Below, one piece after another: positions 6,623 through 62,135 of a DNA stretch of 64,000 bases. The notes beneath the pieces were generated by a model. The model worked only from the letters and a program-made list of their open reading frames with translations, made no database searches and was not told where the DNA came from. Both the position numbers and the translations under genes were made by a program. This DNA is from a virus. Taxonomy: Duplodnaviria > Caudoviricetes. How positions within the stretch are numbered: position 1 is the stretch's first letter; each line of letters opens with the position of its first letter. The stretch lies in the IMG/VR virus record IMGVR_UViG_3300042307_000844; one strand, given 5' to 3'.

Positions 6623-6629
6623 ATATTAA

Positions 6630-6657
6630 ATAGTAACATGGAATACTCTCGTGTCAA
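6630..6657 (-). promoter_or_regulatory. Sigma70-type early/middle promoter of the uvsY operon (TTGACA-N16-TACTAT), 7 nt before the ATG
   Basis: Reverse complement reads ttgaca cgagagtattccatgt tactat ttaatat ATG, with an extended TG. Confidence 0.75.
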
Positions 6658-6886
6658 GGATGAAAAGAATATCGCAAATATTTATCAACAAATGCTTAAT
6701 GAGGATATGACAAGCGGTGGTGCGTTTGGTGGTGATATTGCGGGTCATGCTGGAATGGAGAACACGGATTGGTTTGCACCGGGGGATGCCAGAAACCCGT
6801 ATGGAATGGGAATCACTACGAGAAGTGGTCAATTGAGTGCGAAAAAAGGTAAGAAACGTAAGAAAAAGCGTGTTCAGAAACAATAA
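6638..6886 (+). CDS. Small late protein with a basic C-terminus (candidate internal head protein)
   Basis: TAAATA-N5-ATG at 6627-6638; MEYSRVKDEKNIANIYQQMLNED...DWFAPGDARNP...KKGKKRKKKR. Confidence 0.7.
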   Translation: MEYSRVKDEKNIANIYQQMLNEDMTSGGAFGGDIAGHAGMENTDWFAPGDARNPYGMGITTRSGQLSAKKGKKRKKKRVQKQ

Positions 6887-7226
6887 TTTTTGTACATAAG
6901 ACCAAGCCCGCCCACCACCCCTAATTATATTCGCCATATTGATTTGTCAATAGTGTAATATGAATTATTTTCAAGTTTTTTCAATTATTGTTCATCTATT
7001 CCCACCCTCCTCCCTATACCTTAACATGACTATTTCAAAAGTCAATACCTTATAATTAATTAGCTTATTATTAGATATTGATTAGATATTAACTATGATT
7101 AAAGATAACTAAAGAAAGAAACAAAGAAAAAAAAATTAATTCTAATAAATACAATCAATCAGCTTACCAAAGCGTACCAACGCTTATCATTAGATATTGA
7201 TTTAGATTAATTATAATTAAATATAA
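6887..7226. other. 340-bp non-coding region with tandem leftward promoters, G-rich tracts and AT-rich repeats; candidate replication origin
   Basis: TTGACT-N16-TAAGGT (7045-7018) and TTGACA-N15-TATAAT (6950-6924) on the minus strand; gcttat(t/c)attagatattgatt occurs twice (near 7063 and 7182); A-tracts. Confidence 0.45.
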
Positions 7227-7697
7227 ATGGAAAAAATTTTGGAAACCGCCCCACAAATCACCACTTGGAAGAATTTCCCAACCGATACGGAAGGTGTTGT
7301 GGGATTTGTTTACCTCATCCGCAACAATCATCCAGAATCTACACGCAAATATTACATCGGTAAGAAACAGCTTCTCAAGCGTGTGAAGCGCAAACCATTG
7401 AAAGGTAAGACACGCAATCGCATTTCATTTGTGGACAATGATGTGGAGAAGTATTGGGGATCGTCCAAAGAACTCCTGAATGATATTGAGAAATATGGGA
7501 TTGAGCATTTTTCAAGGGAAGTGATAGAGGTGTGTTACTCAAAATTCCATATGACGTATTCGGAACTACTGTGGCAGATCAAAACCAATTCATTAATGGA
7601 TCAAAGATTCTACAATGGCATTCTAAATGTTAGGATTTCGAAGATACCCAAAGGATTTGTTGACATTGAACGTGATCCTGCTATTTTGAAGCTGTGA
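7227..7697 (+). CDS. GIY-YIG endonuclease (short type conserved in T4-like phages)
   Basis: GFVYLIRN...YYIGKK, YWGSS, FSREVIE, FYNGILNVR. Confidence 0.85.
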   Translation: MEKILETAPQITTWKNFPTDTEGVVGFVYLIRNNHPESTRKYYIGKKQLLKRVKRKPLKGKTRNRISFVDNDVEKYWGSSKELLNDIEKYGIEHFSREVIEVCYSKFHMTYSELLWQIKTNSLMDQRFYNGILNVRISKIPKGFVDIERDPAILKL

Positions 7698-8194
7698 CAA
7701 GGATTCAATTTCAAAATAGAAAGATCATCGACATTGATGAGATATTTCGGGATACGAATGGAAATTTCGCAATCCTTTTGGAATCCCTTGGATTGACCAC
7801 CACCTTTGATTTCTCCAAGCGCAATAACCAAAAATTATACACCCACGAGTTCATCAAGACCACAACACAATTCCTGAAATACAACACCCACACGGATTTC
7901 ATTTTCTTTTCCAATGCTCTTACCAAGGACAAGTTCCGCAATCGACTTTTGGCTAAAATCCGGCGAATCTTCAAGATAAGGATTTGGGAAGCCAATTATG
8001 ATTTGGAGCATTTAAAATACCTGATTGATATTCGGGACTGTTCCACCATCTCTGGATTGGAAATGGCATTTTCGGATCGCAAACCCCCATCGTTCCGCAA
8101 GATTTCCAAATATCTGGAAAAGGAAGGTCTGACATTCCTAAATGAAAAATACTTTCAAGATGTGGTAAACAAAATGATAATTTTCAATCATTAA
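7694..8194 (+). CDS. Hypothetical protein
   Basis: ORF coupled to the upstream stop; no motif recognised. Confidence 0.65.
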   Translation: MTRIQFQNRKIIDIDEIFRDTNGNFAILLESLGLTTTFDFSKRNNQKLYTHEFIKTTTQFLKYNTHTDFIFFSNALTKDKFRNRLLAKIRRIFKIRIWEANYDLEHLKYLIDIRDCSTISGLEMAFSDRKPPSFRKISKYLEKEGLTFLNEKYFQDVVNKMIIFNH

Positions 8195-8207
8195 TCTAAA
8201 TAGTATT

Positions 8208-8657
8208 ATGAGCAAATTTCTTGAGATTTTAGAACAACACGATCCTGCCAACCAATCCAAGATGGATGCGGCATTTCAGGCGAAATTCTTCCTTTATGAA
8301 CAAGAAGTCCCTTTCAGTTCCAAAGGTTCCCAAATCATCCTTCATGCGGAACAAGGGGATATTATTTTGGAAGCTGTGGGTATGCAAGCCCGTCAAGATA
8401 TGGGCGATCTCCCAGAGGAAGAACAACAAACAGTTGGTTCGTATGATATTGACGGAGAAGTTGAAAAATTGGGCGCAAAAGCATTAAGTCTTGGCCCAAT
8501 GGGTAAGCTTCTTGGGACGAAGGCACAGAAAGCGAAAGCGGCAGCTAAAGAGCGCGATAATGTTGCGGGTCAAGCGGTAGAACAGTATAAAAACAACACC
8601 AACAGCCTAAGAAAAGCGGTTGCAAAATCCAAAGCGAAAAAATTCAACGTTGTTTAA
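8208..8657 (+). CDS. Late hypothetical protein (candidate internal head protein)
   Basis: TAAATA-N5-ATG; N-terminal KFLEILEQ; Ala/Lys-rich C-terminus. Confidence 0.7.
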   Translation: MSKFLEILEQHDPANQSKMDAAFQAKFFLYEQEVPFSSKGSQIILHAEQGDIILEAVGMQARQDMGDLPEEEQQTVGSYDIDGEVEKLGAKALSLGPMGKLLGTKAQKAKAAAKERDNVAGQAVEQYKNNTNSLRKAVAKSKAKKFNVV

Positions 8658-8658: not shown

Positions 8659-9063
8659 ATGAAATCTAAAACCTTACAATTAATCGCAAGATACCAAACC
8701 ATCTTGGAACAAGATGAGCAAAATCCTGAAGCTGGTATGGAACAAGCACCACCCCAAGAAGGACAATCTCCTGCACCAGAGATGCCTCCTGAAGAACCTC
8801 AAGAGACAATCCCCCTGAGTTCTCCCGCCGAAGTGCGTTACATGGAAGATGTGGTTCTAGCTGCTCTCATGGAACCCCCCAGTGGCACGGATCGCATTGC
8901 TTTGGAAAACATCCTAGATTTGCTACGCAGACCTGATAATATCAAGAGAATTCAAGCATCGGGACAAACCGCAAAGGATTTGTATCAATCAAAAGTTCTT
9001 CCAATTATCCGTCCTGCACAACAAGGACAGGACATTCGGGATAATTTAGATCAGATGGACTAA
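8659..9063 (+). CDS. Late hypothetical protein, Pro/Glu-rich N-terminal region
   Basis: Likely start MKSKTLQLIARYQTILEQ at 8659. Confidence 0.7.
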   Translation: MKSKTLQLIARYQTILEQDEQNPEAGMEQAPPQEGQSPAPEMPPEEPQETIPLSSPAEVRYMEDVVLAALMEPPSGTDRIALENILDLLRRPDNIKRIQASGQTAKDLYQSKVLPIIRPAQQGQDIRDNLDQMD

Positions 9064-9071
9064 ATAATATT

Positions 9072-9530
9072 ATGAAATTCAAAGGAGAAGAAAATGCCGT
9101 GCTTTGGGAATCCTATACTGGAAGAAATTTTAAACGAGAAGACGCAGAAGAAGACTTCATGAGCGATGATCTTGAAGACGATTTTTCTGATGATGGTATT
9201 GACGATTTTGACGATGACATGGATTTTGGCGATGATCTTGACGATGATCTTGGAGGCGGGGAAGCACAAGGAATGGTCATGCAAATTGATCCAATTGCTC
9301 CCGTGGAATCGCATGAGGTAAATGAGGTTCTGGTATCGGAACTCAAGAAGCTTTCGGAATATGGTAAGCGTCTTTATGACATGAAAGATTCCGCTGAATT
9401 TGAAGATTGGATGGTTTCAGCAATCACCATTGCATCTACTTACGTTTCCGATGTTTGGCACCGTCTGGATGCCAAGGCTGATTTCGCCAATACGGGGTTT
9501 GAGCAAGCCGATGATTTCGAACAATTTTAA
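9072..9530 (+). CDS. Late acidic (Asp-rich) hypothetical protein
   Basis: TAAATA-N5-ATG; LWESY; DDF/DDL low-complexity tract. Confidence 0.7.
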   Translation: MKFKGEENAVLWESYTGRNFKREDAEEDFMSDDLEDDFSDDGIDDFDDDMDFGDDLDDDLGGGEAQGMVMQIDPIAPVESHEVNEVLVSELKKLSEYGKRLYDMKDSAEFEDWMVSAITIASTYVSDVWHRLDAKADFANTGFEQADDFEQF

Positions 9531-12144: not shown

Positions 12145-12174
12145 TAAATATAATAGAATTTAATAAATAATAAT

Positions 12175-12411
12175 ATGAGCGGGTTTTTTAAAGAAAAATA
12201 CGGAGGTTCTGCTGGGGCAATTTTGGATGCTTGGGGGCATGACCGAATCAATGCGGAGATTGGAAACATCTATGAGCAACATGTATTTGGTGCCAAGAGC
12301 ATCAACATGGACGAACTTCTAAATGAATTTCATGGACAAGCTACGGGCGGTGCTGTGAGGTATTCGGCTGATATTAAGACTGCTCCCAAAGGGGGCTTAC
12401 TGGAAGGATAA
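12175..12411 (+). CDS. Late hypothetical protein
   Basis: TAAATA-N5-ATG at 12164-12175. Confidence 0.6.
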   Translation: MSGFFKEKYGGSAGAILDAWGHDRINAEIGNIYEQHVFGAKSINMDELLNEFHGQATGGAVRYSADIKTAPKGGLLEG

Positions 12412-13596: not shown

Positions 13597-14848
13597 AATT
13601 TTTAACAGAATATGTTATCAGCCTATTCCAAAAATCCAATCCTTCAGGATGATGTCTTTCAATTATCAATCTGAGAGTCTTCATTAAAACATTTAAATCT
13701 TTCATAATTTGATAAACATTTGAATGTTCTGTTATATTTGGTGCTAAAGATTCGTTGAAGATTTCTTCAAAAGTTCTTCCATTGTTGTTCATTCGTTGTA
13801 ATCTTTCAGCGTGTTTTTTATTATCACTTTCTTTCTTTTTATATGTCATTTTTTTAATCCTACTCAGATCAAAATTAGGATCAATTTGCTCCACTATACT
13901 TCTAATATAATGTGGTCGCCAGTTACAATTGGCTAATTGTTGTATTTCTTTAATATTTAAAGGTTTTTCTTTTAAAGCTGGTATAATTATTTGTTCACAT
14001 AACTCTAAATGTGTCATTCCATTGTTAGCATTTCGTTCCATTACTTCACTCTGTCTCGCCTTCCACGCATCAGAAAGTTTGATACCATATCTTGGATTTT
14101 TATCACCCTTCACCGATAATTCACCGGATGCGAATTTTTGTTTTCTTTTTTCTTTAGTTCTTTTAATACCCGCATCGTAGATGTGTGGATTTTCTAATTT
14201 TCGGATACGCCTAGTTTCTTTTTGTTTTTCAATTGTTTCTTTTGAATGTTTTTTACCTCTCATAAATGATCTATCGACCAATTTATTTGATATTCTCATT
14301 TTTTTCTTGGTTTCTTCACTATGTTTTCTACCAATCATATTACCAACTCTACCTTTTTTATACTCTTCTGGCATGATAGGTGTCCATCCTTGTAAAATCA
14401 TTTCATCATAATGGTTGGGGTCTAATATATTAACATATATAACATTTTCACTCATGTATAATTTTTTATATTTAGGTTTTGCTTTTTTAAGAGATTCATA
14501 AAATCTAGAATTAACATATCGTTGTTCTTGGTGTTTATTTTTTAATCTCATTTGGAAGAAGGCAAAATTCATTTTTTGGTTCTTAATTTTACAATTAAAC
14601 ATTTTCGTCAGCAAAAGATGTGCTATAAAATGATCTCTTCCGGGTAAAATGACTACGTTATCATCACAAGATAGAATTTCAGGATCGACAAATCGTTTAA
14701 ACGATTTTGGTATGATGTGATGTTTTTCACAATAGACATCATCGGAATATTGAGTTGATAAAGATTTATTTATTATGGTAACATACCATTTGACATATTT
14801 TGAGTTGTTCGATATTCTTGTTATTTCGTTTAGTATTGATTTGGTCAT
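13580..14848 (-). mobile_element. Free-standing HNH homing endonuclease with NUMOD3 repeats
   Basis: EKHHIIPKS...NVVILPGRDHFIAHLLL; GRKHSEETKKKM and GKKHSKETIEK NUMOD3 motifs; AT-rich. Confidence 0.85.
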
Positions 14849-14964
14849 ATAAGTATTTAGTATAAAAGTTCAAAATTTTTCAAAAAACGAGTTAATTACT
14901 ATTCTATCAAGATTTGAACAAAGTAGCTTGCAATCCTATAATTATCTGTTAAGTTAATATTATT

Positions 14965-23675: not shown

Positions 23676-23704
23676 ATTATTTGATTTGTCGCTAAATAAT
23701 CATA

Positions 23705-28113: not shown

Positions 28114-28121
28114 ATAATCCT

Positions 28122-28586: not shown

Positions 28587-28619
28587 TATCAAAGTCCATT
28601 CATGGGACTAAATAATACT

Positions 28620-30380: not shown

Positions 30381-30395
30381 AACATAAATAAGAAC

Positions 30396-31067: not shown

Positions 31068-31075
31068 ATAATACT

Positions 31076-31612: not shown

Positions 31613-31649
31613 TTTTCAAAAAATTCATACCCGATCTCTAAATAATAAT

Positions 31650-36349: not shown

Positions 36350-36432
36350 ACTATTACTTAACAGACTATCAGACCAAAAACAGATTTCAATAAAAATATT
36401 TGACAAATTTAAAAATTGTGTTAAATTAATAC

Positions 36433-36867: not shown

Positions 36868-36875
36868 ATAATACT

Positions 36876-38442: not shown

Positions 38443-38450
38443 ATATTCTC

Positions 38451-43991: not shown

Positions 43992-44090
43992 ACTATATTA
44001 CTTAGTAAATTTTAATGATTTTTCCATGATTTTTTCATAAAAAAGTTGAGAGAAGGTTATTATATTAAGTATTATCAGACCGTGTAAAAA

Positions 44091-45170
44091 ATGAACGATT
44101 ACAATTACTTCTTTGAAAATTCCCAACTCCTCAACATGTTCGTTGCAGCGTTTGACGATGCATTCGTATATCGTTATGATGCTCGCACCCGTGTAGCAAA
44201 GGAGAAGATTGAGGTTCGATACGTCAATGGACCGAAACACCGTGTTCTCCTCGATCTGAGCGATAGAGCCAAGACACTCACCCTACCCGTGGTGACGATT
44301 GAGCAAACCTCATTGGCGCGTGATCCGTCCCGTATCCATAATAAAGGCCAATTTATTTACAGAAAACAGTTGGATTCCACGAATCGGATGGCTAAAATTC
44401 CCCAACCAATTCCCGTAAATCTTACTCTGGATGTGAACATCATCTGCTATTTCAAGGAGGATTTGGATCAGATCATTCAGAATTTCGTGGTGAATTGCAA
44501 TCCATATATCATGGTTTCTTGGAAAATTCCTGAAAAATTCAACATGCCGTTCATTGATGAGATTCGTTCGGAAATTCAGTGGTCGGGAGATATTTCCTAT
44601 GAAAATCCCAAGGACTTGTCTCCCGATGTGAAATGGAGAATTTCTGCTTCCACTTCTTTCACGGTCAAGGGATGGTTGTTCAAGGATTACAATCAGACCC
44701 AAGCACCAATCTATGTAATCAATGCTGACTTTCATGCGCTTCCGTTTAGCAGCCGCTTCTGTGATTACAATCTCTTTGATGCGATCAGTGCTGAAGGAGT
44801 GGTGACGGATAGCGTATCAATCAGTGCATATCCAGAATTCACCAATTATTTCATCAACGGTATTCACCAAGGGGATTCTCTGGTTGTCACGGAATTGAAT
44901 GACAGGAACTTCCAATTCTATGGTAAGCGATTTGGATATAATAACACTTGGTATCTATCAGGTGCTTATAATATTCCCGAATTGGTATATACGGAGATTG
45001 ACACTGCCAAGTTCCCCACCATTTCCGCATACCAGTTACCAGAGAATGTGATTACCACAGTGAATGATAATATTGTCACGGTGTCGCTAAGTTCCAATTA
45101 TTTTAGTAATTTGTCAGGAAATATGGTTTTTGTGACAGCTAATGATGCGGGATGGGTTGCATCCTATTAA
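44091..45170 (+). CDS. gp15: gp15-like tail sheath stabiliser/terminator
   Basis: MFVAAFDDAFV, IEVRYVNGPKHR, TLPVVTIE, QIIQNF..NCNPY, SFTVKGWLF. Confidence 0.8.
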   Translation: MNDYNYFFENSQLLNMFVAAFDDAFVYRYDARTRVAKEKIEVRYVNGPKHRVLLDLSDRAKTLTLPVVTIEQTSLARDPSRIHNKGQFIYRKQLDSTNRMAKIPQPIPVNLTLDVNIICYFKEDLDQIIQNFVVNCNPYIMVSWKIPEKFNMPFIDEIRSEIQWSGDISYENPKDLSPDVKWRISASTSFTVKGWLFKDYNQTQAPIYVINADFHALPFSSRFCDYNLFDAISAEGVVTDSVSISAYPEFTNYFINGIHQGDSLVVTELNDRNFQFYGKRFGYNNTWYLSGAYNIPELVYTEIDTAKFPTISAYQLPENVITTVNDNIVTVSLSSNYFSNLSGNMVFVTANDAGWVASY

Positions 45171-45196
45171 AAAAAACAATTCAACTAAATAATATC

Positions 45197-45505
45197 ATGA
45201 CTACGAAAGATCAATTTGCAATTTCAAATCTTATAACAGAGATGTATTCAGAACAATCAGGTATTGTTAAATTGGAGCAAGATGAATTTGGAAATCTTTC
45301 GACCAGAACACCAGACGGTGAATTGGAAATGTTAATGGGATATTCTAGCGGTGGAGAACCAGTAACTTTCAAATTTCCAATGAGTGAGTATCAACAACAA
45401 TATTTTTCCAATGCTTTGTATGATGCAATTGAGACTGGTATGTTACCATCGTCCACGACAGCAGTTCAATTACCAGATGGTTCCACTTTTGAAATACCTA
45501 AATAG
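45197..45505 (+). CDS. Late hypothetical protein
   Basis: TAAATA-N5-ATG; MTTKDQFAISNLITEMYSEQ. Confidence 0.65.
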   Translation: MTTKDQFAISNLITEMYSEQSGIVKLEQDEFGNLSTRTPDGELEMLMGYSSGGEPVTFKFPMSEYQQQYFSNALYDAIETGMLPSSTTAVQLPDGSTFEIPK

Positions 45506-45545
45506 ATTTCATTGAATAATTGAAGATTCCGCTTAAATAATAAGT

Positions 45546-47369
45546 ATGGCGGGTATCGGCAGTTCAACAACACCATCTTCAAACAAACAATACCAAGGAA
45601 CGGATGGTAAAGGTTCCACATTTGATAGGAACATGCAATCCTATTTGAAGAATCGCGGGAATTTCATTGAGAAGACTCCTGACGAAGCGAAGAATACAAA
45701 ATATAAATATTTCCAAAAGATTGGTTTACGCAGACCGGAAGCGATTGCTAGAAATTCCGTAGCTCTCAATAACGACTGGAACAACACTGCATTTTCCGCA
45801 ATTTACCAAGACAAGTCCTTTACGGATTTGATGTATTCCCAAGCTTCGGAGGAAAAACCGGGGCGTTTGCGGGACTACCGCATGATTGCCGCTTACTCTG
45901 AAGTGGCGGATGCCATGGATGAGATTTGCGATGAGACGATCAATGTGGATGAGAACGGAGAGATTGTAACTCTAGAAATCCGTAATACTGATCTGGAATC
46001 GGAAAAGAAAGAGGAGATTGAGAAGGAATTCTCCCGTTTCGTTGCCATGATGGAACTGGAAGACAATGGTTGGAATTATTTCCGCCAATTTCTTATTGAA
46101 GGCGAACTGTTCTTTGAATTGATTCTAAAAGATGATTATATCAAACAAGGGGTAGTTGCCATCAAAAACCTCCCTGCTGAACAATTTGATCCTGTATATG
46201 ACAACATTCAGACGATGTTGGTGAAAGCGTTCATTTACAAGAAGCCAATCTTCTCTTCGGTGGATAATAAAAAGGTAGAACGCTATGAATACATTCCCTT
46301 TGAACAAAACCAAGTCCTCTATGTGAACAGTGGGCAATATAATGAAACCAAGGATTTTATCATTCCTTTCATTGAGAATTGCCGTAGAGCTTACAGACAG
46401 CTTTCCATGATTGAGGATTCCGTGGTGATCCACAGAATGGTTCATGCGCCCCTCCGCTTCCTCTTCAACGTGGATGTGGGAAGATTGCCCGTCCCCGCAG
46501 CAGAAGCCTACCTACGCAAGCTACAGAGCCAATACTGGTCAACCAAGACGTTTGACATGGATCAGGGAGATATTGTCAAGAAATACGCACCTCAATCCAC
46601 GCTTGATTCATTCTGGTTTGCCAAGAGACAAGGACAAGAGGCAACTACAGTTGAAACATTTGGGGGTCAAATGTCGGATGGTAATATGGAACCTCTTGAT
46701 TGGTTCATCAAGAAATTATATCGTTCTCTCAAGACTCCAACTTCTCGTTTGAATAATGAAACGGGTTATAATGATGGAACGGAGATGCTTCGGGAAGAAC
46801 TGAAGTTTGCCAAGATGATCATTCGTCAACAACAACGCTTTGCCCAAGGTATCAAGAGAGCGTTTATCACACACCTCAAGTTCAAGGACATGTTCGATGA
46901 TTGGGATTTGTTCGATGACAATATCCGCGTGGAATTCAATGTTCCCACCAATTTCTATGATATGCGGGAGAGCCAGAAGCTCAATCTTAAGATTGAGACT
47001 TTCAATAACATTACGGGTAATGAAATGGTATCCACGATTTATGCCATGAAGAAATATCTGGATTGGAGAGATTCCGATATCCTTGCCAACCTACATTTCA
47101 AGAAGGTGGAAGCGGAACACATGTTTGAAATCGAACAAATAAAAACACTCGGACCCAACTACAAAGAGTTATTAGCTCAACAAGCTGGAGGCGAAGCTGG
47201 TGGTGATATGGGAGCCATGGGAGGATCAAGTGGAGGTGGTGGGATGCCTCCAGATTTTGGAGGCTCTGGCGCAGCTATAACTGATTCAGAAGCTCCAAAT
47301 GTCGAAGCTCCACTCGATCAAGCAGAAACGCCGGAAGCTCCGTCCAATGAACCAGAGATGGGTGTCTAA
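45546..47369 (+). CDS. gp20: gp20 portal protein
   Basis: EVADAMDEICDE, QLSMIEDSVVIHRMVHAP, FNVDVGRLP, KLYRSLKTPTSRL, REELKFAKMIIRQQQRF. Confidence 0.96.
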   Translation: MAGIGSSTTPSSNKQYQGTDGKGSTFDRNMQSYLKNRGNFIEKTPDEAKNTKYKYFQKIGLRRPEAIARNSVALNNDWNNTAFSAIYQDKSFTDLMYSQASEEKPGRLRDYRMIAAYSEVADAMDEICDETINVDENGEIVTLEIRNTDLESEKKEEIEKEFSRFVAMMELEDNGWNYFRQFLIEGELFFELILKDDYIKQGVVAIKNLPAEQFDPVYDNIQTMLVKAFIYKKPIFSSVDNKKVERYEYIPFEQNQVLYVNSGQYNETKDFIIPFIENCRRAYRQLSMIEDSVVIHRMVHAPLRFLFNVDVGRLPVPAAEAYLRKLQSQYWSTKTFDMDQGDIVKKYAPQSTLDSFWFAKRQGQEATTVETFGGQMSDGNMEPLDWFIKKLYRSLKTPTSRLNNETGYNDGTEMLREELKFAKMIIRQQQRFAQGIKRAFITHLKFKDMFDDWDLFDDNIRVEFNVPTNFYDMRESQKLNLKIETFNNITGNEMVSTIYAMKKYLDWRDSDILANLHFKKVEAEHMFEIEQIKTLGPNYKELLAQQAGGEAGGDMGAMGGSSGGGGMPPDFGGSGAAITDSEAPNVEAPLDQAETPEAPSNEPEMGV

Positions 47370-48408
47370 ATTTTAAATTAGCTCTCTTACTGTCGTTAAG
47401 AGACTCTGGTATTGTTTGGAGATTTCCATGGTGATGATAACCTCCTTTGGTTAGAGGTAAGATATGATCAACATTATATTTGATACCTAGACAATCTTCC
47501 AGCCTGATTCGCATATCAACATATGTTTTTTCAATGTTTTGATCGTGATTAGGATGTGTTGCGTTCTTTTTTAACGCTCGTCTTTTACTATTTCTCAATA
47601 ATACCTTATCCCAATTATTTTTATCCCAATTATTCTTTTTAATATTTAATTGTTCTTTATTATTTTTATAATATTCAGAAAATTTTTTGTTGTGGCAAGC
47701 TTCACAATAAGACGATCTATTTTTAAATTTTTTATGTAATATACAAAAGCTATCAATTGGGGAAATTTGATCGCATGAGTAACATTTTTTATTACCACTC
47801 ATTTCTAATTTTACATTTTCTATTTGTAATGCCTTGTCCCATAAAAATTCTGGAGTGTCCCCCCAATATTTTAATATGGGATTATCGTGCTTAATTAATT
47901 TATTGGCTATTCCCTCGAATGATTTTGGTATAACTTGAATATTTTGGTGATGATGATAACCTCCTTTATTCATTGGGATTATTTTATGTAATATAAATTT
48001 AACACCTAAACATTTTTGCAATCTAATTTTCATTTCTATTAAAACAGCTTCTATCTTCGGATCATGTTGTTCGTGATAAGCATCGTTTTTAATTGCATTC
48101 GTCTTATAAGAACCCAATTGTCTAATCACCGGATTCTTCAATTTATAATTTTTAGAACGGAGTAATTCCTTTTCCAAATTCTTTTCTCTATATATTTTAC
48201 CTCTCTCTATACAAAGCTCACGGTTTTCTTCTCTGTATTTTACCATATAAGCATCATGACGATCTTTATTTTTCAATCTCCATTCACGTTTTCGTTCTTT
48301 CCCACATTCAATACATTCATATTGCAAACCATCAGGACTTTTGGAAGATTTTGTAAATAAATTTAATGATAACTCACTTTTACATCTAGTGCATTCCTTC
48401 GTATTCAT
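47275..48408 (-). mobile_element. HNH endonuclease built from two tandem (Zn-ribbon + HNH) units
   Basis: KECTRCK...C..C; LHKIIPMNKGGYHHHQNIQ (first, degenerate) and VDHILPLTKGGYHHHGNLQTI...N (second). Confidence 0.85.
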
Positions 48409-48481
48409 ATTAATATTTAACTAAACGGATCAAACTGGAAAGAAAAAATTGTGATAAATCACCATCAAATTAAATATTATC

Positions 48482-48901
48482 ATGACTTCCCACGACTTCA
48501 AAAATCTAGCACTATTATATGAAAGTATGGAAAACCATACCATGTCTCTGAACGATATTTATGGTGATATTGAATATGATGTTCCTGAAAACGAGGCACT
48601 TTATAGTGCTGTTGACCCCGAAATAGGGGATATCCAAATTCCGATCAAAACACTATCACCAGATCAATTGTTGAAATTGACGACATATAAAGATGATACC
48701 ACGGTATTTCAAGCATATAAAGATTTTGCTGATAGGGATCAGAAGCAAATCGTAAATCATTACAAGAAAAATTTAAATGAATTACACGATAACCCAATCG
48801 TCATTAATAATAACACGGCTTTGGATGGGTATCATCGAATTATTGCAGCTATTTTGATGAAACAATCTTTGAAAGTATTGGATGTGTCGGATATACAGTA
48901 G
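48482..48901 (+). CDS. ParB/Sulfiredoxin-like domain protein
   Basis: NPIVI...LDGYHRIIAA; late promoter. Confidence 0.7.
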   Translation: MTSHDFKNLALLYESMENHTMSLNDIYGDIEYDVPENEALYSAVDPEIGDIQIPIKTLSPDQLLKLTTYKDDTTVFQAYKDFADRDQKQIVNHYKKNLNELHDNPIVINNNTALDGYHRIIAAILMKQSLKVLDVSDIQ

Positions 48902-48902: not shown

Positions 48903-49577
48903 TTAATTTAAAGGAATGCCATAAGTCTTGGCATATTCTTTCGATTTCTGGTCAAAAGGATAAATTGTCCCATGCCACAGGAAATCGTTTCCCGAATCGA
49001 TTGCCCCCAAAGGACGGACTTTCACAATCCACTCGCCCATATATTCGCCTTTGGAGTTTTTAAATTTTAATTTACCAGAAAACTGTGAAAATACATCGGT
49101 TGAATCCTCCCATCTACGCATGTAATCATCAAGTTGATGTTCGTCTTCCACGAAATTTTTCCAATTTAATCTAAGCAATTCTTCTGATGATGTTGCACAC
49201 AGATTACAATATGCTTCATTCACCATAATATTAAGACCTTTGGAGGTAACTCTAAACGATGGTTTGGGATTGAGCCAAAACATAGCCTCTATTTCAGCTT
49301 TGATTATTTTCACAGAATCCCGCATGGAACCCCCACCATTCGGGGATATTTCATATTCAACATTTTTTAAACGATCATCAATATTTGACACAGTTCCTTG
49401 AATATTTTTTAAAGATTCTGGTATGGAATTCCGAGATTTAATATATTCCTGACGTTCCTTATATTTTTCGACAATAAAAGTCCTGAGTTGTTTCCAAGTC
49501 AATATAATGGCACCAATCGCCCCTAGAATAATTTTTATAAAATTGGCGTGTTGTTGAACAAAATCGTAAAAATCCAT
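48903..49577 (-). CDS. Membrane-anchored coiled-coil plus PAS-domain protein (candidate holin/lysis regulator)
   Basis: TM segment IKIILGAIGAIILTW; PNGGGSMRD; PSFRVTSKGLNIMVNEAYCNL...EELLRLNWKNFV...GEWIVKVRP PAS pattern. Confidence 0.7.
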   Translation of the reverse strand: MDFYDFVQQHANFIKIILGAIGAIILTWKQLRTFIVEKYKERQEYIKSRNSIPESLKNIQGTVSNIDDRLKNVEYEISPNGGGSMRDSVKIIKAEIEAMFWLNPKPSFRVTSKGLNIMVNEAYCNLCATSSEELLRLNWKNFVEDEHQLDDYMRRWEDSTDVFSQFSGKLKFKNSKGEYMGEWIVKVRPLGAIDSGNDFLWHGTIYPFDQKSKEYAKTYGIPLN

Positions 49578-49594
49578 AATATTATTTATGAAAG

Positions 49595-49891
49595 TTAATC
49601 ACAAAAGCTCACACAGTTGAACGCGGAATTATAATAATATTTTGTTCCATTGTTTTCTTCAGCATTCCAACCCGAATCAGTGGGTCTATCACAGTCATAG
49701 AAGTAGAATTGACTCCCATTATTGGACGATGGGTGGATGTAAGTGGTGTCCTGCCCCCAGAGGATGAAATCGTTGGCAGATAGGTAATAATACGCGGAAC
49801 CGTTGTTGGTATTAGCATTCCAACCTGAAACGGTGGGGATGCCGCAGGATAATTCGTAATAAATGGAACCGTTGTTTGATTCAAAGGACAT
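49595..49891 (-). CDS. 98-aa late protein made of two internal repeats (SNNGS..Y..C..PT.SGWNA..NNG..YYY.SA)
   Basis: TAAGTA-N5-ATG at 49902-49891; the duplication is visible in the protein sequence. Confidence 0.7.
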   Translation of the reverse strand: MSFESNNGSIYYELSCGIPTVSGWNANTNNGSAYYYLSANDFILWGQDTTYIHPSSNNGSQFYFYDCDRPTDSGWNAEENNGTKYYYNSAFNCVSFCD

Positions 49892-49919
49892 AATAATACT
49901 TAACAGATTAAATAAGATT

Positions 49920-51059
49920 ATGAGCTTATGCCAAGTTGAACCAATTTCCGCTTTCATGTCCACCAATCTCAATTCCAAGATTGAGTGTTACCAGCGTTTG
50001 GGAGAGAGGATTCTGAGAACCTTGGGACATCCCATGATTAATGTGGAGTTACATTACGATCAGTTACACGAAGCCATATCAATGGCGGTTGACTTCTATA
50101 CAGTATATAGTGGTTACACTAAAGAATATCTTATTTTTGACAGCCGATTGTATGAGGGTAACAAAGGCTTACGATTGGATCATCTTTTCACAGTTGCCAA
50201 TTCGGGATACACACCATCGGAAAAGCTCAATGATAAGAGAACCGGACCACAACCGGATTATGAAGTGACTCTCCCAACTCCTTTATATGTTTCCCTTTCC
50301 ACAATTCCCAGCGCATATTTCACAGCTTCTTCAGCATTAAGCGGAGTGGTTCCTTCCGATGGCATTACTTCCATGCAAATTATTGACCAAACTACTTACG
50401 ATCTTCTAGTGGGATTCAATGCTGGTTTGAGTGTGCTGTTCCAACAATCCTATCAAAAACCGTTCACGATACAGTGTGAACAACAGGATGATGTGAACAC
50501 ATTCAATAATATGTTTGATTATGATGTCATGGATTACCGCAAAGTAGTTGATGTTATTTCTTTTGAGGAAGGTTCTTCCACAGGTGTAAACACATTGTTT
50601 TCCGTGGAACAAACCATGGCTCAACAAAGTTATCACGCTTATTCGCTGGGTAACTATGGATTTGATATTCTATCTTGGCACACCGTCAAGGATTGGATTG
50701 ATACCCGCGAAAAAATGTTTGCTACTCGTCGGGACATCTATTTTGATGCAAGAACACAATATCTCCGTTTAATACCTCAACCGAAAAACACTCAATTTTT
50801 TGGCTTGCTCACTTGCTACGTGGAAAAACCTTTAAGAGATTTGATCAAGGAGAAGTGGATTTTGGAATACGCCACCGCCATGTCTAAGATCATGTGGGGA
50901 CGGATACTCACTAAGATATCCGGTGTTACTTTACCCGGAGGTGGTTCCATTGATGGTTCCAGCATTCTTTCGGAAGGATTGGAAGCGAAAAAAGAATTGG
51001 AACAATTCTTAATTGAAGGTGGATTCTCAACGGACCCTCCCTTGATGCTCGTGATGTGA
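49920..51059 (+). CDS. gp13: gp13 neck protein
   Basis: ILRTLGHPMINVELHYDQLHEAI, W..EYATAMSKIMWGRILTK..GVTLPGG...G..I..EG. Confidence 0.88.
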   Translation: MSLCQVEPISAFMSTNLNSKIECYQRLGERILRTLGHPMINVELHYDQLHEAISMAVDFYTVYSGYTKEYLIFDSRLYEGNKGLRLDHLFTVANSGYTPSEKLNDKRTGPQPDYEVTLPTPLYVSLSTIPSAYFTASSALSGVVPSDGITSMQIIDQTTYDLLVGFNAGLSVLFQQSYQKPFTIQCEQQDDVNTFNNMFDYDVMDYRKVVDVISFEEGSSTGVNTLFSVEQTMAQQSYHAYSLGNYGFDILSWHTVKDWIDTREKMFATRRDIYFDARTQYLRLIPQPKNTQFFGLLTCYVEKPLRDLIKEKWILEYATAMSKIMWGRILTKISGVTLPGGGSIDGSSILSEGLEAKKELEQFLIEGGFSTDPPLMLVM

Positions 51060-51080
51060 GATACCTTATTAAGTATTGTT

Positions 51081-51806
51081 GTGTTTATTCGTGGATCAGG
51101 GGCGGGCAATGAGGCGAAAAGGAACGACGAATCGTTCTACCGTGGAATTGTGGTCAAGAACAACGATCCCCTGAAAATGAATCGGGTTAAGATATTCATT
51201 CCCGAATTATCCAACCAACCTTTTGAGGAATGGTTTGAGAAATATGAGGAAATGAATATTCAAAGACCCGGACTCAACAACCCCGAAGACACTTGGGTTG
51301 ATATCAAGATTTACGAAGAGATTTCCAAACACATTCCATGGGCGGAACCGTGTTATCCTCTGATGGGAGAATCCGGTAATGGACGATACTTCAAACAGGA
51401 TGGGGATGGTTTGGCTGTTATAACGGACAGTAACTATTCGGAGACTTACGAAAATAATAATACTGAAGTCCCAACTTTAAGCGGGGGATCGTTCTCCCCT
51501 TCATTTTTATATGAAAACATGGATACCATGGTATCCGATGCGTTTGCCAATCCTCTTGATGTTTTCGCTGTCAAATGCAATCCCTATGCTTTTGGATATA
51601 AATCGAATAATTTCACAAACAAATCCAAGGGAATGTTCGGTATTCCCGAAGTGGGTTCCAAGGTTTGGGTGTTCCATTATCTGGGAGATTTAAACTTTCC
51701 CATTTACTTTGGAGTGTCGCAGGATTTCCGTGGACTGACACTGATAAATAGAACCGACAATGATAATAAAATTTCCCCTTATTATCCAAACGATTTTGAG
51801 AATTGA
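51081..51806 (+). CDS. gp5-like baseplate hub N-terminal OB-fold protein
   Basis: FYRGIVVKNNDPLKMNRVKI, IPWAEP, IPEVGSKVWVF..GD..FPIYFG. Confidence 0.8.
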   Translation: MFIRGSGAGNEAKRNDESFYRGIVVKNNDPLKMNRVKIFIPELSNQPFEEWFEKYEEMNIQRPGLNNPEDTWVDIKIYEEISKHIPWAEPCYPLMGESGNGRYFKQDGDGLAVITDSNYSETYENNNTEVPTLSGGSFSPSFLYENMDTMVSDAFANPLDVFAVKCNPYAFGYKSNNFTNKSKGMFGIPEVGSKVWVFHYLGDLNFPIYFGVSQDFRGLTLINRTDNDNKISPYYPNDFEN

Positions 51807-56127: not shown

Positions 56128-56769
56128 TTAAACGATCTCATCAACGATTCCGTATTGGAGGCATTCCTCTGCATTGAGCCAGATGTCCCGCTTCAAAAGT
56201 TCATCCAATTTCTTCATGGGAAGCTTGGTATTCTTTTTATAGAAATCTTTCAAAAGTTTCATCAGATTGGTGCAATTGAAAATCTCATCCTCCATCTCTG
56301 AGAACTTACCATACACACCGGAACTCAATTGGTGGATCAAAAGATGAGCATGTTGTCCCATGTATCTCTTGCTACCAATGGCGGAAACCAAGGTTCCTGC
56401 ACTTGCCACACTACCATCAATGTGGGTATGGACTTTGGATTTCAGTCTGCGGATGGTATCCACGGTGGAGAATGCTGCAAAGATACTACCACCAAAGGTA
56501 TTCAGGTGAAGATGGATGGTGGATTCATACGCACCGTCTAAAGCAAGTTCCATGCTTTGAAGCTTCAAATCTGTTTCTAAAAGAACCCTATTCAATTCTA
56601 ACATCGCCCCCTCATTAACATCAGCATAAAATAAAATTTTATTATTGATGACTCTAATACCTTGAGGATATTGAGTTTCTTCATTATCAGAAGAATTTAT
56701 GATAATCTGGGGCATTTGGAATGCATTCATGTTCTCCTTCTCCTCTTCGTTTCGGTAACGCCACTTCAT
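56128..56769 (-). CDS. ClpP-like serine protease
   Basis: LNTFGGSI, DGSVASAGT (Ser), LLIHQLS (His), RDIWLNAEECLQYGIVDEI (Asp); TAAGTA late promoter. Confidence 0.9.
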   Translation of the reverse strand: MKWRYRNEEEKENMNAFQMPQIIINSSDNEETQYPQGIRVINNKILFYADVNEGAMLELNRVLLETDLKLQSMELALDGAYESTIHLHLNTFGGSIFAAFSTVDTIRRLKSKVHTHIDGSVASAGTLVSAIGSKRYMGQHAHLLIHQLSSGVYGKFSEMEDEIFNCTNLMKLLKDFYKKNTKLPMKKLDELLKRDIWLNAEECLQYGIVDEIV

Positions 56770-56816
56770 GTATAATACTTAACACAGAAATCGGGGTTCG
56801 CAATCTAAATACTAAT

Positions 56817-57122
56817 GTGGATCAAGAATTAAAAAACATCTATTCCGATATTATTTTGGAATACCAATCGGGTTTCAATCCTCCCCAAAGGGTTCCCAAG
56901 CAAGCGGTTCCCGATGAAGCTGGGGGTAAATTATCATATGGTAAGATTAAAATGGGAATGGTCAACACTCCAGTAACTACCAATGTCTATGGGGAACAGG
57001 AGGAGGAAGCTGAAGGTATTTTAAAAATTATTCAGGATGTGGAATCGGAATATCGGGGGGATTCTCCCATAAATAATGCCGTGAGATTGGCATTCGGCAA
57101 ATTAAAGGAAAAATTGGCATGA
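56817..57122 (+). CDS. Late hypothetical protein
   Basis: TAAATA-N5-GTG; DQELKNIYSDIILEY. Confidence 0.65.
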   Translation: MDQELKNIYSDIILEYQSGFNPPQRVPKQAVPDEAGGKLSYGKIKMGMVNTPVTTNVYGEQEEEAEGILKIIQDVESEYRGDSPINNAVRLAFGKLKEKLA

Positions 57123-57371: not shown

Positions 57372-58040
57372 TTATTGAAGATTTTTATTGTTTATGGAGA
57401 TTTTTTTATCTTCTTTAGATTTTAGAAGATTTTCTATACCCCATAACGGGCGAAGATTTACATAATTAAAACATTTGAATTGTTCTTCAGGGATGGATAA
57501 ATCAAAAGAACAACAAGGAATAATGTGATCAATATGCCACTCACCATAATTATCCCATGACATATTTTCTTGAAATTGATTTTGAAGATGCAGCTTAAAA
57601 AAATCTACATCACAACCAAGTAATTCTATTGTCGATTTCGACTTACATTTCCCATGTAAAGCTCTTCTAATTCTTATTCTTAAACGTTCAGATAAAACAT
57701 GGTTTATATTATGTTTTCCTCTGCTGTGATACCATTTATTGATATTTCTCCTCTGAGAACCAGATTCTTTTCGCTGTTTATATACAGCATCCCAATTATT
57801 TTTCCGCCACTCTTGATTTCTTTCATATACCTTTTTTCTATTTTTTTCAGTATATCTTCTTTGGCTTTCTAAGTCTTTTTGTTTATATTCTGGATTGTTT
57901 CGATAAAAGGTTTTCGATTCCTTATCATATTTTCTTTTAATTTCCAATTGTTCGGGAGTCATGTCTTTTCGTGGTAGATTCCACCATAATGATACTCCTT
58001 CTGGGAATTTTGGTCGTTGTATTTCGATATCATCTTGCAT
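57372..58040 (-). mobile_element. HNH-like homing endonuclease
   Basis: LLGCD...L..QF...MSWDNYGEWHIDHIIPC..FDL...Q.KCFNYVNLRPLW..NL.K. Confidence 0.85.
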
Positions 58041-58076
58041 AATCATATTTAACATGATTATGACAATATGCAACAA

Positions 58077-58655
58077 CTACCGATTCACTGCTTCGTGGTG
58101 CATTGCATCGTATCCCCAAAAAGCACCAGCGGCAATCCACCCCTCACGGGCAAAGCATTCCATAATCTCCAATGGCATATCTGATTTCATTGGCCAGCTA
58201 TCGCGGAAAGTATTATCATCGGCATCCAAATCAATGGCAGCACCATAGGCATGTAGAGAATAAGAAGAACCTCCACGCTTCAAGCGGAAATTGAAAACGC
58301 CCCCATAATCTTCAGCTTCATCTTTAATATCTGGATATTTTGGAATTATATCCTTAATGTTGTTCAATACCCTCAAAAGAGAATCCACACATTTCTTATT
58401 AACACGGGTTTTAGTAACCAATTTACCACCATAATACATTGGGTATGGAAAGTTGATCATTACGAGATTTGATTCGTCTCCGGGTTTTCCGTAAAATTTA
58501 GTTAAGGATGCTTGATCACTTTTTGGCCATGGGTTGTTCTTAGGCATCAGAGAGCGTAGATATGTTTTACATGCGGCTTGTGATTTCGGACCCCAAAATC
58601 CATCAACAGTTGTTCCGATTTTTTTCTGCATTTTTTTAATTTCATCGCTATTCAT
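58077..58655 (-). CDS. Endolysin: peptidoglycan-binding domain plus M15 peptidase
   Basis: QKKIGTTVDGFWGPKS; FNFRLKRGG..YSLHAYGAAIDLD; DAMHHE. Confidence 0.88.
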   Translation of the reverse strand: MNSDEIKKMQKKIGTTVDGFWGPKSQAACKTYLRSLMPKNNPWPKSDQASLTKFYGKPGDESNLVMINFPYPMYYGGKLVTKTRVNKKCVDSLLRVLNNIKDIIPKYPDIKDEAEDYGGVFNFRLKRGGSSYSLHAYGAAIDLDADDNTFRDSWPMKSDMPLEIMECFAREGWIAAGAFWGYDAMHHEAVNR

Positions 58656-58663
58656 AAAAATAC

Positions 58664-59071
58664 TTAGTCCAATCCATATTTTTCAAATCTCTTTTTCCAG
58701 ATAAAATAAGAACCCGCAACAACAGCAGAATAAATCGTCCATCTCATGGGAAGAGATACCCCAGCCTCTTTCATCAATTCTAAAAACATCCAGTTGGATT
58801 CCTTCCAAGTGAATTTGTCGTTGAATGGAGAGAAGCACCAATCATGAATCAGAGCCGCTGGAAAAGCTCCTCCAAATGGCCCGACAATTGGCCAAGCGAA
58901 TTTCGGGGAACTGATCCCATCAGTGATGAATCCTTTCTTTACGGTGATGAGATGATTCTTATAAAAACAGCGAAAATTCTCCCCCAACTCAAATTTTCGG
59001 GTTCCTTTATGGATACCCAAATCTTTCAGATATATCGTATCAGGAAAGGTGTTTTTATTAACGGTGGTCAT
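58664..59071 (-). CDS. DUF1353-family protein
   Basis: VKKGFITDGISSP, AALIHDWCF, N.MFLELM. Confidence 0.85.
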   Translation of the reverse strand: MTTVNKNTFPDTIYLKDLGIHKGTRKFELGENFRCFYKNHLITVKKGFITDGISSPKFAWPIVGPFGGAFPAALIHDWCFSPFNDKFTWKESNWMFLELMKEAGVSLPMRWTIYSAVVAGSYFIWKKRFEKYGLD

Positions 59072-59119
59072 AATAATATTTAGCTTGACATTGGGAAATA
59101 TTTTATTATAGTGATGGAA

Positions 59120-60291: not shown

Positions 60292-60298
60292 TTTCGTT

Positions 60299-60496
60299 AT
60301 GATTAAAATTCTAAAAAATAATAGTGTTCAATTGTGCTGCAAAGGAAAAAGTTGCCCTATCGTTACTGAACTTGCTGATGGAATGGTGGAGATTGTGGAT
60401 GATAACGGCAATCGTATCGTAGTCCGCAAGGAAGAAGCCCTCTTGATTTCCGATGGGGTGAAAACGATTGATAGTCAGAAATTGATCCTTGGATGA
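60299..60496 (+). CDS. Hypothetical protein with a Cys cluster (CCKGKSCP)
   Basis: Likely start MIKILK at 60299. Confidence 0.6.
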   Translation: MIKILKNNSVQLCCKGKSCPIVTELADGMVEIVDDNGNRIVVRKEEALLISDGVKTIDSQKLILG

Positions 60497-60801
60497 GCCT
60501 TTGGTTTCAATCATTTGTTTTAATTGGCTGTTGTTTGATCCTGAAATACGGATCAATCCTTGAGCCTATTCGTGTCTTTCTCAGACAATGGGAATTCTTT
60601 GAAAAGCTTCTCAAGTGCTGTATGTGTATGGGCTTTTGGGTGGGAGTATTCTTTGGAATATTCTGGTCTGCCCACATTTGGGAGATTCCGCTTTGGGGAT
60701 TCTACGCATCTGTAATCTGCTGGTTTGCAGACTATCTGACGATGGTGCTTGACAAATATCTGGATGATGGTAAAGTGGAGGATGAAGAAATTACCAAATA
60801 A
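60493..60801 (+). CDS. Membrane protein, DUF1360-like
   Basis: Hydrophobic helices; KLLKCCMCMGFWVG. Confidence 0.6.
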   Translation: MSLWFQSFVLIGCCLILKYGSILEPIRVFLRQWEFFEKLLKCCMCMGFWVGVFFGIFWSAHIWEIPLWGFYASVICWFADYLTMVLDKYLDDGKVEDEEITK

Positions 60802-61087
60802 TTTTCATCAGAAAACGATTGAAGAAAAATCACAGTATTTTCATTCTTTATCTGACAAAGATGTGTATGATTTATCACCATCTATGTCTTTTATATTTTA
60901 TAAAACCAATAACATCGAGGGATGTTTATATGATGGATGGTATTATGATAAGGTTGTAATTAATAAAAATGCCTCAACATATCAACAAAAATTAATTTGT
61001 AAGGTAGTGGAAAAATATTATGGGTTTTTGAAATGGGATGACATATTGGGATCGCAAAAAATAGTTAATCACATTAAAACATTATGA
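60782..61087 (+). CDS. Hypothetical protein
   Basis: Likely start MKKLPN at 60782. Confidence 0.55.
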   Translation: MKKLPNNFHQKTIEEKSQYFHSLSDKDVYDLSPSMSFIFYKTNNIEGCLYDGWYYDKVVINKNASTYQQKLICKVVEKYYGFLKWDDILGSQKIVNHIKTL

Positions 61088-61257
61088 ATAAAAAACATCC
61101 ACATTATAAGGCAACTGTTGTGAGATACAGAGGGATCGGTGGCGGATTTAAAATTAAATGCAAAGACGGATCATTGTCTGATGAAACATACGGAACTAGG
61201 AAAGGTGCGGAGAAAATGATCAACGGAACATTTGGAAGTGCTGGAGGTATTAGATGA
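61084..61257 (+). CDS. 57-aa hypothetical protein; below the ORF-track cutoff
   Basis: Manual translation MNKKHPHYKATVVRYRGIGGGFKIKCKDGSLSDETYGTRKGAEKMINGTFGSAGGIR, coupled to the upstream stop. Confidence 0.5.
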   Translation: MNKKHPHYKATVVRYRGIGGGFKIKCKDGSLSDETYGTRKGAEKMINGTFGSAGGIR

Positions 61258-61370
61258 AAACAAAGGAAGAGCTTTTAGAGGAATGGAAAGATGATGATAA
61301 TGTGGAAGGTGAATGAGTGTAAGAATGCTGGATTAAAAACTAGATTATTATAAAGTGATTAAATAATCAA

Positions 61371-62135
61371 ATGGAAAGCTTCAAGACATTTTACGAAAAA
61401 TTTGTAAACGGGGAACTCCCCCCAACCAACCGTAGGCGTAGGATGCTTCTGGAGGCGCAATACACTTACCCATCCACCGGAGATAAGGCGATAATGGATT
61501 TATATGCCTTATATGCCCTGTGGTGGGAGCTTGGAGGGGGTAAGGCTTCTTATGGCTACGAAGACACCAACGTTCGCAATTATAAGGTCAGGGAAAAGGT
61601 TGACCGCTATTTTGAGGAAGCTCTGGTGGTTATTTCCAATACCCTTTTGGAAGAATCCAAGGAAGCCATTGCAGATGAAGCTGAAAATATCTTCGACGAA
61701 TACCTAATCCCCTCTCAAGTGGTGGTGGATTGGTTTAAGGAAAATGATATGATGCCAAAATTGGCAAAAGCTTATAATGGCGGTAAAGGGGGAATTTGGT
61801 TCTCCGTGTTTGATTATGGGGATACCCTTGATATATTATCCGCGCCATTTTGGGAACAATATGCAAATCTTTATGGTGGGGATAAATGGGTGACTATTAC
61901 GGAAACCACCCGCCAACTGGATAATGCTATTCGTAGGGAGAAGGTTCAAAATCTTATGAACGCCTTTGTCAAATTCATGGACTTGGAACACAATACTGGA
62001 AGTCTTTATTCCAAACTTAAAAGAATGAAAGTATCCAAGGAAACACTTGATCTTCGGGCGGGGTTCCGTTCAGCGGAGGATTTTAAACCGCATGTCAGTC
62101 CCCAAGTGGCGAAGCTGATTGGGCTTGTGAGATAA
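61371..62135 (+). CDS. Late hypothetical protein with YGGxxW and DLEHNTG motifs
   Basis: TAAATA-N5-ATG; 254-aa ORF. Confidence 0.7.
   Translation: MESFKTFYEKFVNGELPPTNRRRRMLLEAQYTYPSTGDKAIMDLYALYALWWELGGGKASYGYEDTNVRNYKVREKVDRYFEEALVVISNTLLEESKEAIADEAENIFDEYLIPSQVVVDWFKENDMMPKLAKAYNGGKGGIWFSVFDYGDTLDILSAPFWEQYANLYGGDKWVTITETTRQLDNAIRREKVQNLMNAFVKFMDLEHNTGSLYSKLKRMKVSKETLDLRAGFRSAEDFKPHVSPQVAKLIGLVR

Follow-up and report, generated by a model that had tools for sequence, protein, structure and literature searches.

How does a T4-like phage begin its late genes when a promoter-like hexamer stands only five nucleotides before the start codon? The question is raised by a 64,000-nt stretch of DNA, hereafter the window, from IMG/VR record IMGVR_UViG_3300042307_000844. 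The window corresponds to bases 2719-66718, read on the reverse strand, of a 177,639-bp virus genome (39% G+C, estimated to be 87% complete), and its source is an uncultured T4-like phage. Within the window, the hexamer TAA(A/G)TA recurs at a fixed short distance from start codons, chiefly 5 nt. We consider it probable that these boxes are late promoters read by a phage-encoded homologue of the T4 late sigma factor gp55, and that they yield leaderless mRNAs beginning at the ATG itself.

Spacing between box and start codon

A first-pass annotation of the window had listed 25 sites (17 on the plus strand and 8 on the minus strand) with the box 5 nt ahead of a start codon. Every one of them consists of TAAATA or TAAGTA, exactly 5 nt, and a start codon, which is ATG in 23 cases and GTG in two (51081 and 56817), followed by open reading frames (ORFs) of 78-586 aa. 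One further gap-5 site, absent from that list, has its box at 49583-49588 on the minus strand and its ATG at 49577, opening an ORF of 224 aa. The rarer gaps claimed alongside exist as well, namely 3 nt (7218), 6 nt (23693, 45534 and, on the minus strand, 56781), 7 nt (44004, minus strand) and 11 nt (63676, minus strand).

We counted boxes unselectively, without hand-picked starts: any ATG or GTG downstream of a box was accepted if it opened an ORF of at least 75 aa, and gaps of 12-40 nt served as the control. The total number of TAA(A/G)TA hexamers in the window is ordinary (104, compared with 91 +/- 9 in shuffled sequences); it is their position that stands out. Gap 5 holds 26 of the 104 boxes, against a mean of 0.55 and a maximum of 4 at the control gaps, so the proposed spacing clearly exceeds background. 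Across the whole genome, 56 boxes with a start codon and a long ORF lie at gap 5, against 1.5 per control gap, and seven late boxes precede starts at gap 6. Counting ATG alone, gap 5 was observed 54 times, versus 4.2 in second-order Markov simulations.

Furthermore, among 15 letter permutations of TAAATA, the gap-5 effect appeared only in TAAATA itself (46 of 189 copies), while all others reached 5 at most. AT-richness is therefore not the explanation. Overall, the box precedes the start codon in about a quarter of the phage genes, and the gap-5 rule corrects several starts called from the longest ORF and selects two GTG starts in the window.

Motif anatomy and promoter geometry

The logo of 52 gap-5 gene starts reads a-(C/T)-TAAATA-a-T-A-a-(T/C)-ATG, with invariant T at positions -11 and -7 within the box, a pyrimidine at -1 in 48 of the 52 sites and A at +1 likewise in 48. 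A pyrimidine at -1 combined with a purine at +1 is the usual start-site preference of bacterial RNA polymerase. No conserved -35 element was detected in the 52 sites, where information stays below 0.3 bit at almost all positions from -45 to -14. The logo also lacks a G-rich Shine-Dalgarno (SD) element, and the SD core occurs at one of the 52 box sites.

The one position above that level is -26, where T stands in 34 of the 52 sites (0.46 bit), as part of a weak A-A-T-T-T-T preference that runs from -29 to -24.

The claim that the box is the core of the T4-family late promoter was borne out, and its closest counterpart is the CTAAATA variant of phage Aeh1 (PMC1524935). The T4 late box, TATAAATA, spans -13 to -6, and the Aeh1 variant begins at -12 (PMC1524935; see also PMC2988020). 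Since the T4 box ends at -6, the 5-nt spacer would occupy -5 to -1 and place +1 on the A of ATG. An AUG at or next to +1, as the first-pass annotation had it, would thus follow from a box at the T4 positions, -11 to -6, and by this geometry the mRNAs of the box genes are most likely leaderless.

A second class of box, which we call the early type, consists of AAAAACTAG, 2 nt and a TAyAAT-like hexamer, and it stands ahead of small plus-strand genes at 87-94 kb and 144-177.6 kb of the genome. It lies mostly outside the window, within which a single copy occurs at 61335-61351. A start codon with an ORF follows exactly 6 nt past the hexamer in 25 of the 42 copies of the strict pattern, and in 36 copies when the pattern is loosened. 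Within the 25, the hexamer has A at position 2 without exception and T at position 6 in 24, and a pyrimidine occupies -1 in 24.

A sigma-70 hexamer spans -12 to -7. Because it ends at -7, a gap of 6 nt would again make the A of ATG +1. Two promoter types with a common +1 would be expected to differ in gap by one base, as the two classes do, whereas a shared ribosome signal would give no reason to expect this. At the gene beginning at 61371, an early-type box stands 8 nt upstream of the late box, and this gene may be served by both an early promoter with a 13-nt leader and a leaderless late promoter.

Gene classes and heads of transcription units

We annotated 60 window proteins with PHROGs. 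The genes carrying a box encode head closure, prohead protease, portal, head-tail adaptor, tail fibre, tail chaperone, endolysin and ClpP-like protease proteins, together with five homing endonucleases and products without an assigned function. The box is missing from the genes for both gp46 halves, gp47, two helicases, both ribonucleotide reductase subunits, thymidylate synthase, thymidylate kinase, PhoH, the glycosyltransferases, the sugar epimerase and the CCA-adding enzyme, and from the gp55 gene itself. Two late genes, for the major capsid protein and the sheath stabiliser, also have no box at the leaderless distance. This split is the one expected of late promoters, with some late genes lying inside operons.

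A late box at gap 5 or 6 is present at 19 of 34 heads of divergent units, versus 39 of 217 co-directional genes (odds ratio 5.8; Fisher P = 7.5e-6). Divergent heads need a promoter of their own, since their upstream neighbour lies on the opposite strand, and the enrichment of the box at these sites thus favours a promoter role. In some divergent pairs, the two ATGs are separated by only 24-35 nt, a space that holds two back-to-back boxes and nothing else.

Of seven homing-endonuclease-like genes interspersed among the structural genes, five have their late box at gap 5 and one at gap 3, and the seventh is box-less. Mobile genes may use the 14-nt unit of box and ATG as a portable expression signal.

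Conservation among related phages

The major capsid protein (gene 32601-34067) reaches a best identity of about 33% among deposited phages, to cyanomyoviruses, and a DNA-level search of deposited phages gave no match to the window. Hundreds of metagenomic proteins and IMG/VR contigs match the same protein at 58-100% identity. In IMG/VR, at least 599 related contigs are present, and the RNA runs that contain relatives of the capsid gene are labelled lake water or freshwater.

We compared 80 IMG/VR loci around the capsid gene, whose capsid proteins are 58-92% identical to that of the window. They contain 311 boxes with ATG at gap 5 and 104 at gap 6, whereas other gaps hold 13-72 (mostly 30-70); in a few distant loci, the spacing peak has moved to gap 6.

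At orthologous starts, the box is retained though the flanks diverge. The gene at 36876 has CTAAATA at gap 5 in all 15 relatives, down to 31% protein identity, and the tail fibre gene retains its 6-7 nt gap in 10 relatives. Most of the 45 relatives shown have a box 5-7 nt ahead of the prohead protease gene, and in several of them this box is the exact T4 octamer, as TATAAATA-N5-ATG. At the head closure gene and the gene at 31650, the box has been gained or lost between relatives, and such turnover, read from these comparisons, is promoter-like behaviour.

The gp55 homologue and a proposed mechanism

The presence of gp55 in the window, which the first-pass annotation had asserted, is confirmed by a match to phrog_234, 'late sigma transcription factor' (E 5e-24). 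The protein also matches T4 gp55 of PDB 7D7C/7D7D (E 1.4e-13) and is 30% identical to g55 of S-RSM4. The clamp loader is encoded as well (phrog_168). A 250-aa gene beside it, looked at in the search for gp45, matches only a PHROG family of unknown function.

In the mechanism that we propose, each box would act as a single -10-type element without a -35 partner and would be read by the host RNA polymerase core together with phage gp55. The first transcribed base would be the A of the start codon or one lying no more than a base or two away. Each late unit would then express its first gene from a leaderless mRNA whose 5'-terminal AUG engages the ribosome; the window would contain about 29 such units and the genome about 59. 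Genes further down the units, and the capsid gene, would be translated from internal A-rich sites without an SD sequence. Early boxes share the geometry, which would bring the leaderless share to roughly 40% of the phage genes.

The late-promoter part of this reading is well supported by indirect evidence, and the leaderless part, which would not extend to every late gene, is the most economical prediction from the layout. A broader proposition is that a large clade of lake T4-like phages expresses about 40% of its genes, early and late, leaderless and SD-free, with the 14-nt unit as a complete and portable signal; we would give this even chances. If it is true, the host, or a phage factor, must translate 5'-terminal AUGs very efficiently, and mobile genes could carry the unit with them.

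The capsid-gene leader and lake RNA contigs

The major capsid gene is preceded by a 63-nt leader that is conserved in relatives, and a box is absent there in 44 of the 45 relatives shown. Its hairpin has an AGGAA stem, a GCAA loop and the returning arm TTCCT, flanked by AUGA and CUGA. The inner stem covaries in relatives (GGUC/GACC, AGCC/GGCU, GGUG/CACC, GGCA/UGCC and GACA/UGUC). This hairpin was seen by folding each sequence singly; RNAalifold on a MAFFT alignment, in which the 3' arm was misaligned, gave none. The leader has no Rfam match, and a loose pattern search found no second copy of it in the genome.

In distant relatives, the leader adds a second hairpin, followed by GGUCGAA and then an SD-like AAAGGAG.

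RNA evidence came from four lake metatranscriptome runs, as contigs of relatives that cover small shares of the window. Among lake RNA contigs of relatives, those from three or four studies stop at 32555-32561, in one case directly on adapter sequence. This gives a weak hint that the capsid mRNA begins about 43 nt before its ATG, at the foot of the hairpin. The description of the regulon as window-wide therefore goes too far: the capsid and sheath-stabiliser genes lack a box at the leaderless distance, and the capsid mRNA apparently has a leader of about 43 nt. The unit starting at 31650 may also include the capsid gene, as the box at 31639 is the nearest one upstream.

Counter-evidence and alternative readings

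Several observations weigh against gp55-dependent, leaderless expression from the box. The capsid protein, which is the most abundant late product, does not use this mode of expression. The RNA contigs cover the capsid gene and little else, and no 5' end at a box site is among them. One relative's RNA-library contig spans the junction at 31065, and read-through RNA, or contaminating DNA, is therefore present there. In T4, gp55 reads the late box together with the sliding clamp gp45 and the co-activator gp33. Of these partners, gp45 was not found by tblastn with cyanophage and pelagiphage gp45 in this 87%-complete genome, nor with Pfam PF09116, whose control also failed, and gp33 was not identified, no search aimed at it having been made. 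GTG is the start codon at 4 of the 52 gap-5 sites and at one gap-6 site; in E. coli, GTG is a poor start for leaderless mRNAs.

Two further points concern translation. The SD core occurs at 14% of box-less starts, compared with 10.7% of all ATGs, which amounts to no SD signal in this phage. The argument that the short gap leaves no room for an SD sequence consequently loses its force: box-less genes lack one too, and SD absence cannot separate leaderless from leadered genes. In addition, the box and spacer place A at -3 and -6. A at these positions promotes translation in Flavobacterium and E. coli (PMC6847099), and the box may therefore contribute to translation.

The alternative that survives best, although we judge it unlikely, develops this last point: the box would be an A-rich, Kozak-like translation-initiation element inside leadered or polycistronic mRNAs, perhaps acting with a phage factor, and the promoters would lie elsewhere. 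Ahead of the 131 box-less ATG starts of this SD-free phage, A is frequent from -3 to -6 and near -13; in 87 of these genes the second codon begins with A. SD-independent starts of Bacteroidia initiate better with A at -3, -6, -12 and -13 (Baez et al. 2019, PMC6847099). The phage resembles such start contexts in its lack of SD, in its A-rich box-less starts and in the A at -3 and -6 that box and spacer supply. On the leaderless reading it would differ from Flavobacterium, whose mRNAs are mostly leadered, 87% of them with more than 10 nt (PMC6847099). Moreover, in 7 of the 26 gap-5 boxes of the window, the TAA of the box doubles as the stop codon of the upstream gene, where terminating ribosomes could restart, and the contig across 31065 bridges one such stop/box junction.

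However, A-richness does not account for the invariant T at -11 and -7, which an A-rich context does not need, nor for the failure of the other permutations. The box is also class-specific, being missing from every early and replication gene and from the capsid gene, the highest-expressed late gene. It is enriched at divergent heads, where a promoter is needed and no other conserved element was seen, and the box of early genes is a different, -10-like one that stands one base further off, in keeping with promoter geometry.

Less likely still is a role as a gene-junction or cassette-boundary signal (a stop, a restart site or a landmark for recombination or homing) with promoter activity secondary. 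Five of the window genes with a gap-5 box are homing endonucleases, seven boxes overlap an upstream stop codon, and the turnover between relatives at the head closure and 31650 genes could be taken in the same sense. Yet 19 of the 26 window boxes at gap 5 are not an upstream stop codon, many boxes stand at orthologous core structural genes across distant relatives, and such a role would add to a promoter function without replacing it.

Chance in an AT-rich genome, coupled with start codons chosen to fit the motif, agrees with a hexamer total no higher than expected but is highly improbable in view of the gap-5 excess over both control gaps and simulations, the counting of every ATG or GTG with a long ORF, and the same spacing peak in relatives.

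Host

The closest cellular homologues of the sugar epimerase belong to Chitinophagales/Sphingobacteriales, including Terrimonas (54-59% identity), which may be a faint pointer to the host. The absence of SD would fit a Bacteroidia host. The Bacteroidia promoter element TAnnTTTG, however, is depleted in the phage (137 copies, versus 180 expected) and shows no preference for sites ahead of genes, and the early hexamer belongs to the usual TATAAT type. The layout therefore does not yet constrain the host as had been proposed. We found no gene for ribosomal protein S21 in this genome record, and the phage-S21 paper describes no upstream motif.

Table 1. Box sites and other features of the window discussed in the text
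Feature	Position	Strand	Gene and remarks
TAAATA-N5-ATG	6627..6640	+	gene 6638-6886, 82 aa; head of divergent unit
TAAATA-N5-ATG	8197..8210	+	gene 8208-8657, 149 aa
TAAATA-N5-ATG	9061..9074	+	gene 9072-9530, 152 aa; box TAA is upstream stop
TAAATA-N5-ATG	12164..12177	+	gene 12175-12411, 78 aa
TAAATA-N5-ATG	14846..14859	-	homing endonuclease gene 13580-14848, 422 aa; phrog_655
TAAATA-N6-ATG	23693..23707	+	tail fibre gene 23705-27727, 1340 aa
TAAATA-N5-ATG	28111..28124	+	head closure gene 28122-28586; phrog_218; box TAA is upstream stop
TAAATA-N5-ATG	28609..28622	+	HNH endonuclease gene 28620-30380; phrog_559
TAAATA-N5-ATG	30385..30398	+	prohead protease gene 30396-31067; phrog_207
TAAATA-N5-ATG	31065..31078	+	gene 31076-31612, 178 aa; box TAA is upstream stop
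TAAATA-N5-ATG	31639..31652	+	gene 31650-32537, 295 aa; at place of T4 scaffold gene
TAAGTA-N5-ATG	34868..34881	-	homing endonuclease gene 34079-34870; phrog_314
TAAGTA-N5-ATG	36347..36360	-	HNH endonuclease gene 34895-36349; head of divergent unit
TAAATA-N5-ATG	36865..36878	+	gene 36876-37328, 150 aa
TAAATA-N5-ATG	38440..38453	+	gene 38451-38876, 141 aa; box TAA is upstream stop
TAAGTA 19 nt before ATG	44066..44093	+	sheath-stabiliser gene 44091-45170; candidate leadered late promoter
TAAATA-N5-ATG	45186..45199	+	gene 45197-45505, 102 aa
TAAATA-N6-ATG	45534..45548	+	portal gene 45546-47369; phrog_213
TAAATA-N5-ATG	48406..48419	-	endonuclease VII/HNH-like gene 47275-48408; divergent partner of 48482
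TAAATA-N5-ATG	48471..48484	+	gene 48482-48901, 139 aa
TAAATA-N5-ATG	49575..49588	-	gene 48903-49577, 224 aa; additional to first-pass list
TAAGTA-N5-ATG	49889..49902	-	gene 49595-49891, 98 aa; back to back with 49920 box, 28 nt between ATGs
TAAATA-N5-ATG	49909..49922	+	head-tail adaptor-like gene 49920-51059; phrog_211
TAAGTA-N5-GTG	51070..51083	+	gene 51081-51806, 241 aa
TAAGTA-N6-ATG	56767..56781	-	ClpP-like/head maturation protease gene 56128-56769; phrog_94
TAAATA-N5-GTG	56806..56819	+	gene 56817-57122, 101 aa
TAAATA-N5-ATG	58038..58051	-	gene 57372-58040, 222 aa
TAAGTA-N5-ATG	58653..58666	-	endolysin-like gene 58077-58655; phrog_17001; box TAA is upstream stop
TAAATA-N5-ATG	59069..59082	-	tail assembly chaperone-like gene 58664-59071; head of divergent unit
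Early-type box (AAAAACTAG, 2 nt, TATTAT 61346-61351), late box 61360-61365, N5-ATG	61335..61373	+	gene 61371-62135
gp55 late sigma-like factor gene	4359..4808	-	149 aa; presumed reader of box; no box of its own
Homing-endonuclease-like gene, box at gap 3	7227-7697	+	
Glycosyltransferases and nucleotide-sugar epimerase	18229-23675 and 37404-38174		
Major capsid gene leader, 63 nt	32538..32600	+	box-less; hairpin 32560-32573; gene 32601-34067
Homing-endonuclease-like gene, no box	43088-43861	-	

Implications and comparison with known systems

If transcription starts map to the AUG, T4-type late transcription would have a natural and widespread variant in which the promoter is fused to the start codon. 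The late genes of abundant lake phages, along with their start codons, could then be called from sequence. The layout could also account for the expression of small mobile genes at whatever site they enter, and it poses a concrete question about the host translation machinery.

The closest known systems are the late promoters of T4 and Aeh1. This phage shares with both the core TAAATA, the lack of a -35 element, the AT-rich stretch after the box, the association with structural, lysis and homing-endonuclease genes, and a gp55 homologue. It resembles Aeh1 in the C or T at -12, and T4 in the exact octamer found in some of its relatives. The distance to the start codon sets it apart. T4 late mRNAs are leadered and SD-led, as the first-pass annotation had stated: in a structural region of 40 kb, T4 has its box 14-28 nt ahead of annotated starts, and GGAG or AGGA stands in between. 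In this phage, by contrast, the box lies 5 (sometimes 6) nt before the start, without an SD sequence.

Cyanophage S-RSM4 shows no gap-5 peak. In 50 kb of pelagiphage HTVC008M, many starts have a clear SD sequence and only two annotated starts obey the N5 rule. Our literature search returned no description of the box-N5-ATG layout for T4-like phages, and within the literature searched this box-to-start distance is new for the T4-type late promoter family.

A -10-type element a few bases before the start codon is known from Deinococcus-Thermus genes, in which the -10 box adjoins the ORF (PMC12340547), and from Thermus phage phiYS40, for which Sevostyanova et al. 2007 (PMC1885378), as related in PMC3594737, reported mostly leaderless mRNAs in the middle and late classes. 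As far as that account goes, the arrangement in phiYS40 likewise extends to a whole temporal class of genes. There, however, it involves a host sigma factor, a host whose own mRNAs are often leaderless, and mapped transcription starts, whereas the box described here is of the gp55 type. If our reading is true, this phage would offer a second phage system, besides phiYS40, for studying how infection favours leaderless translation.

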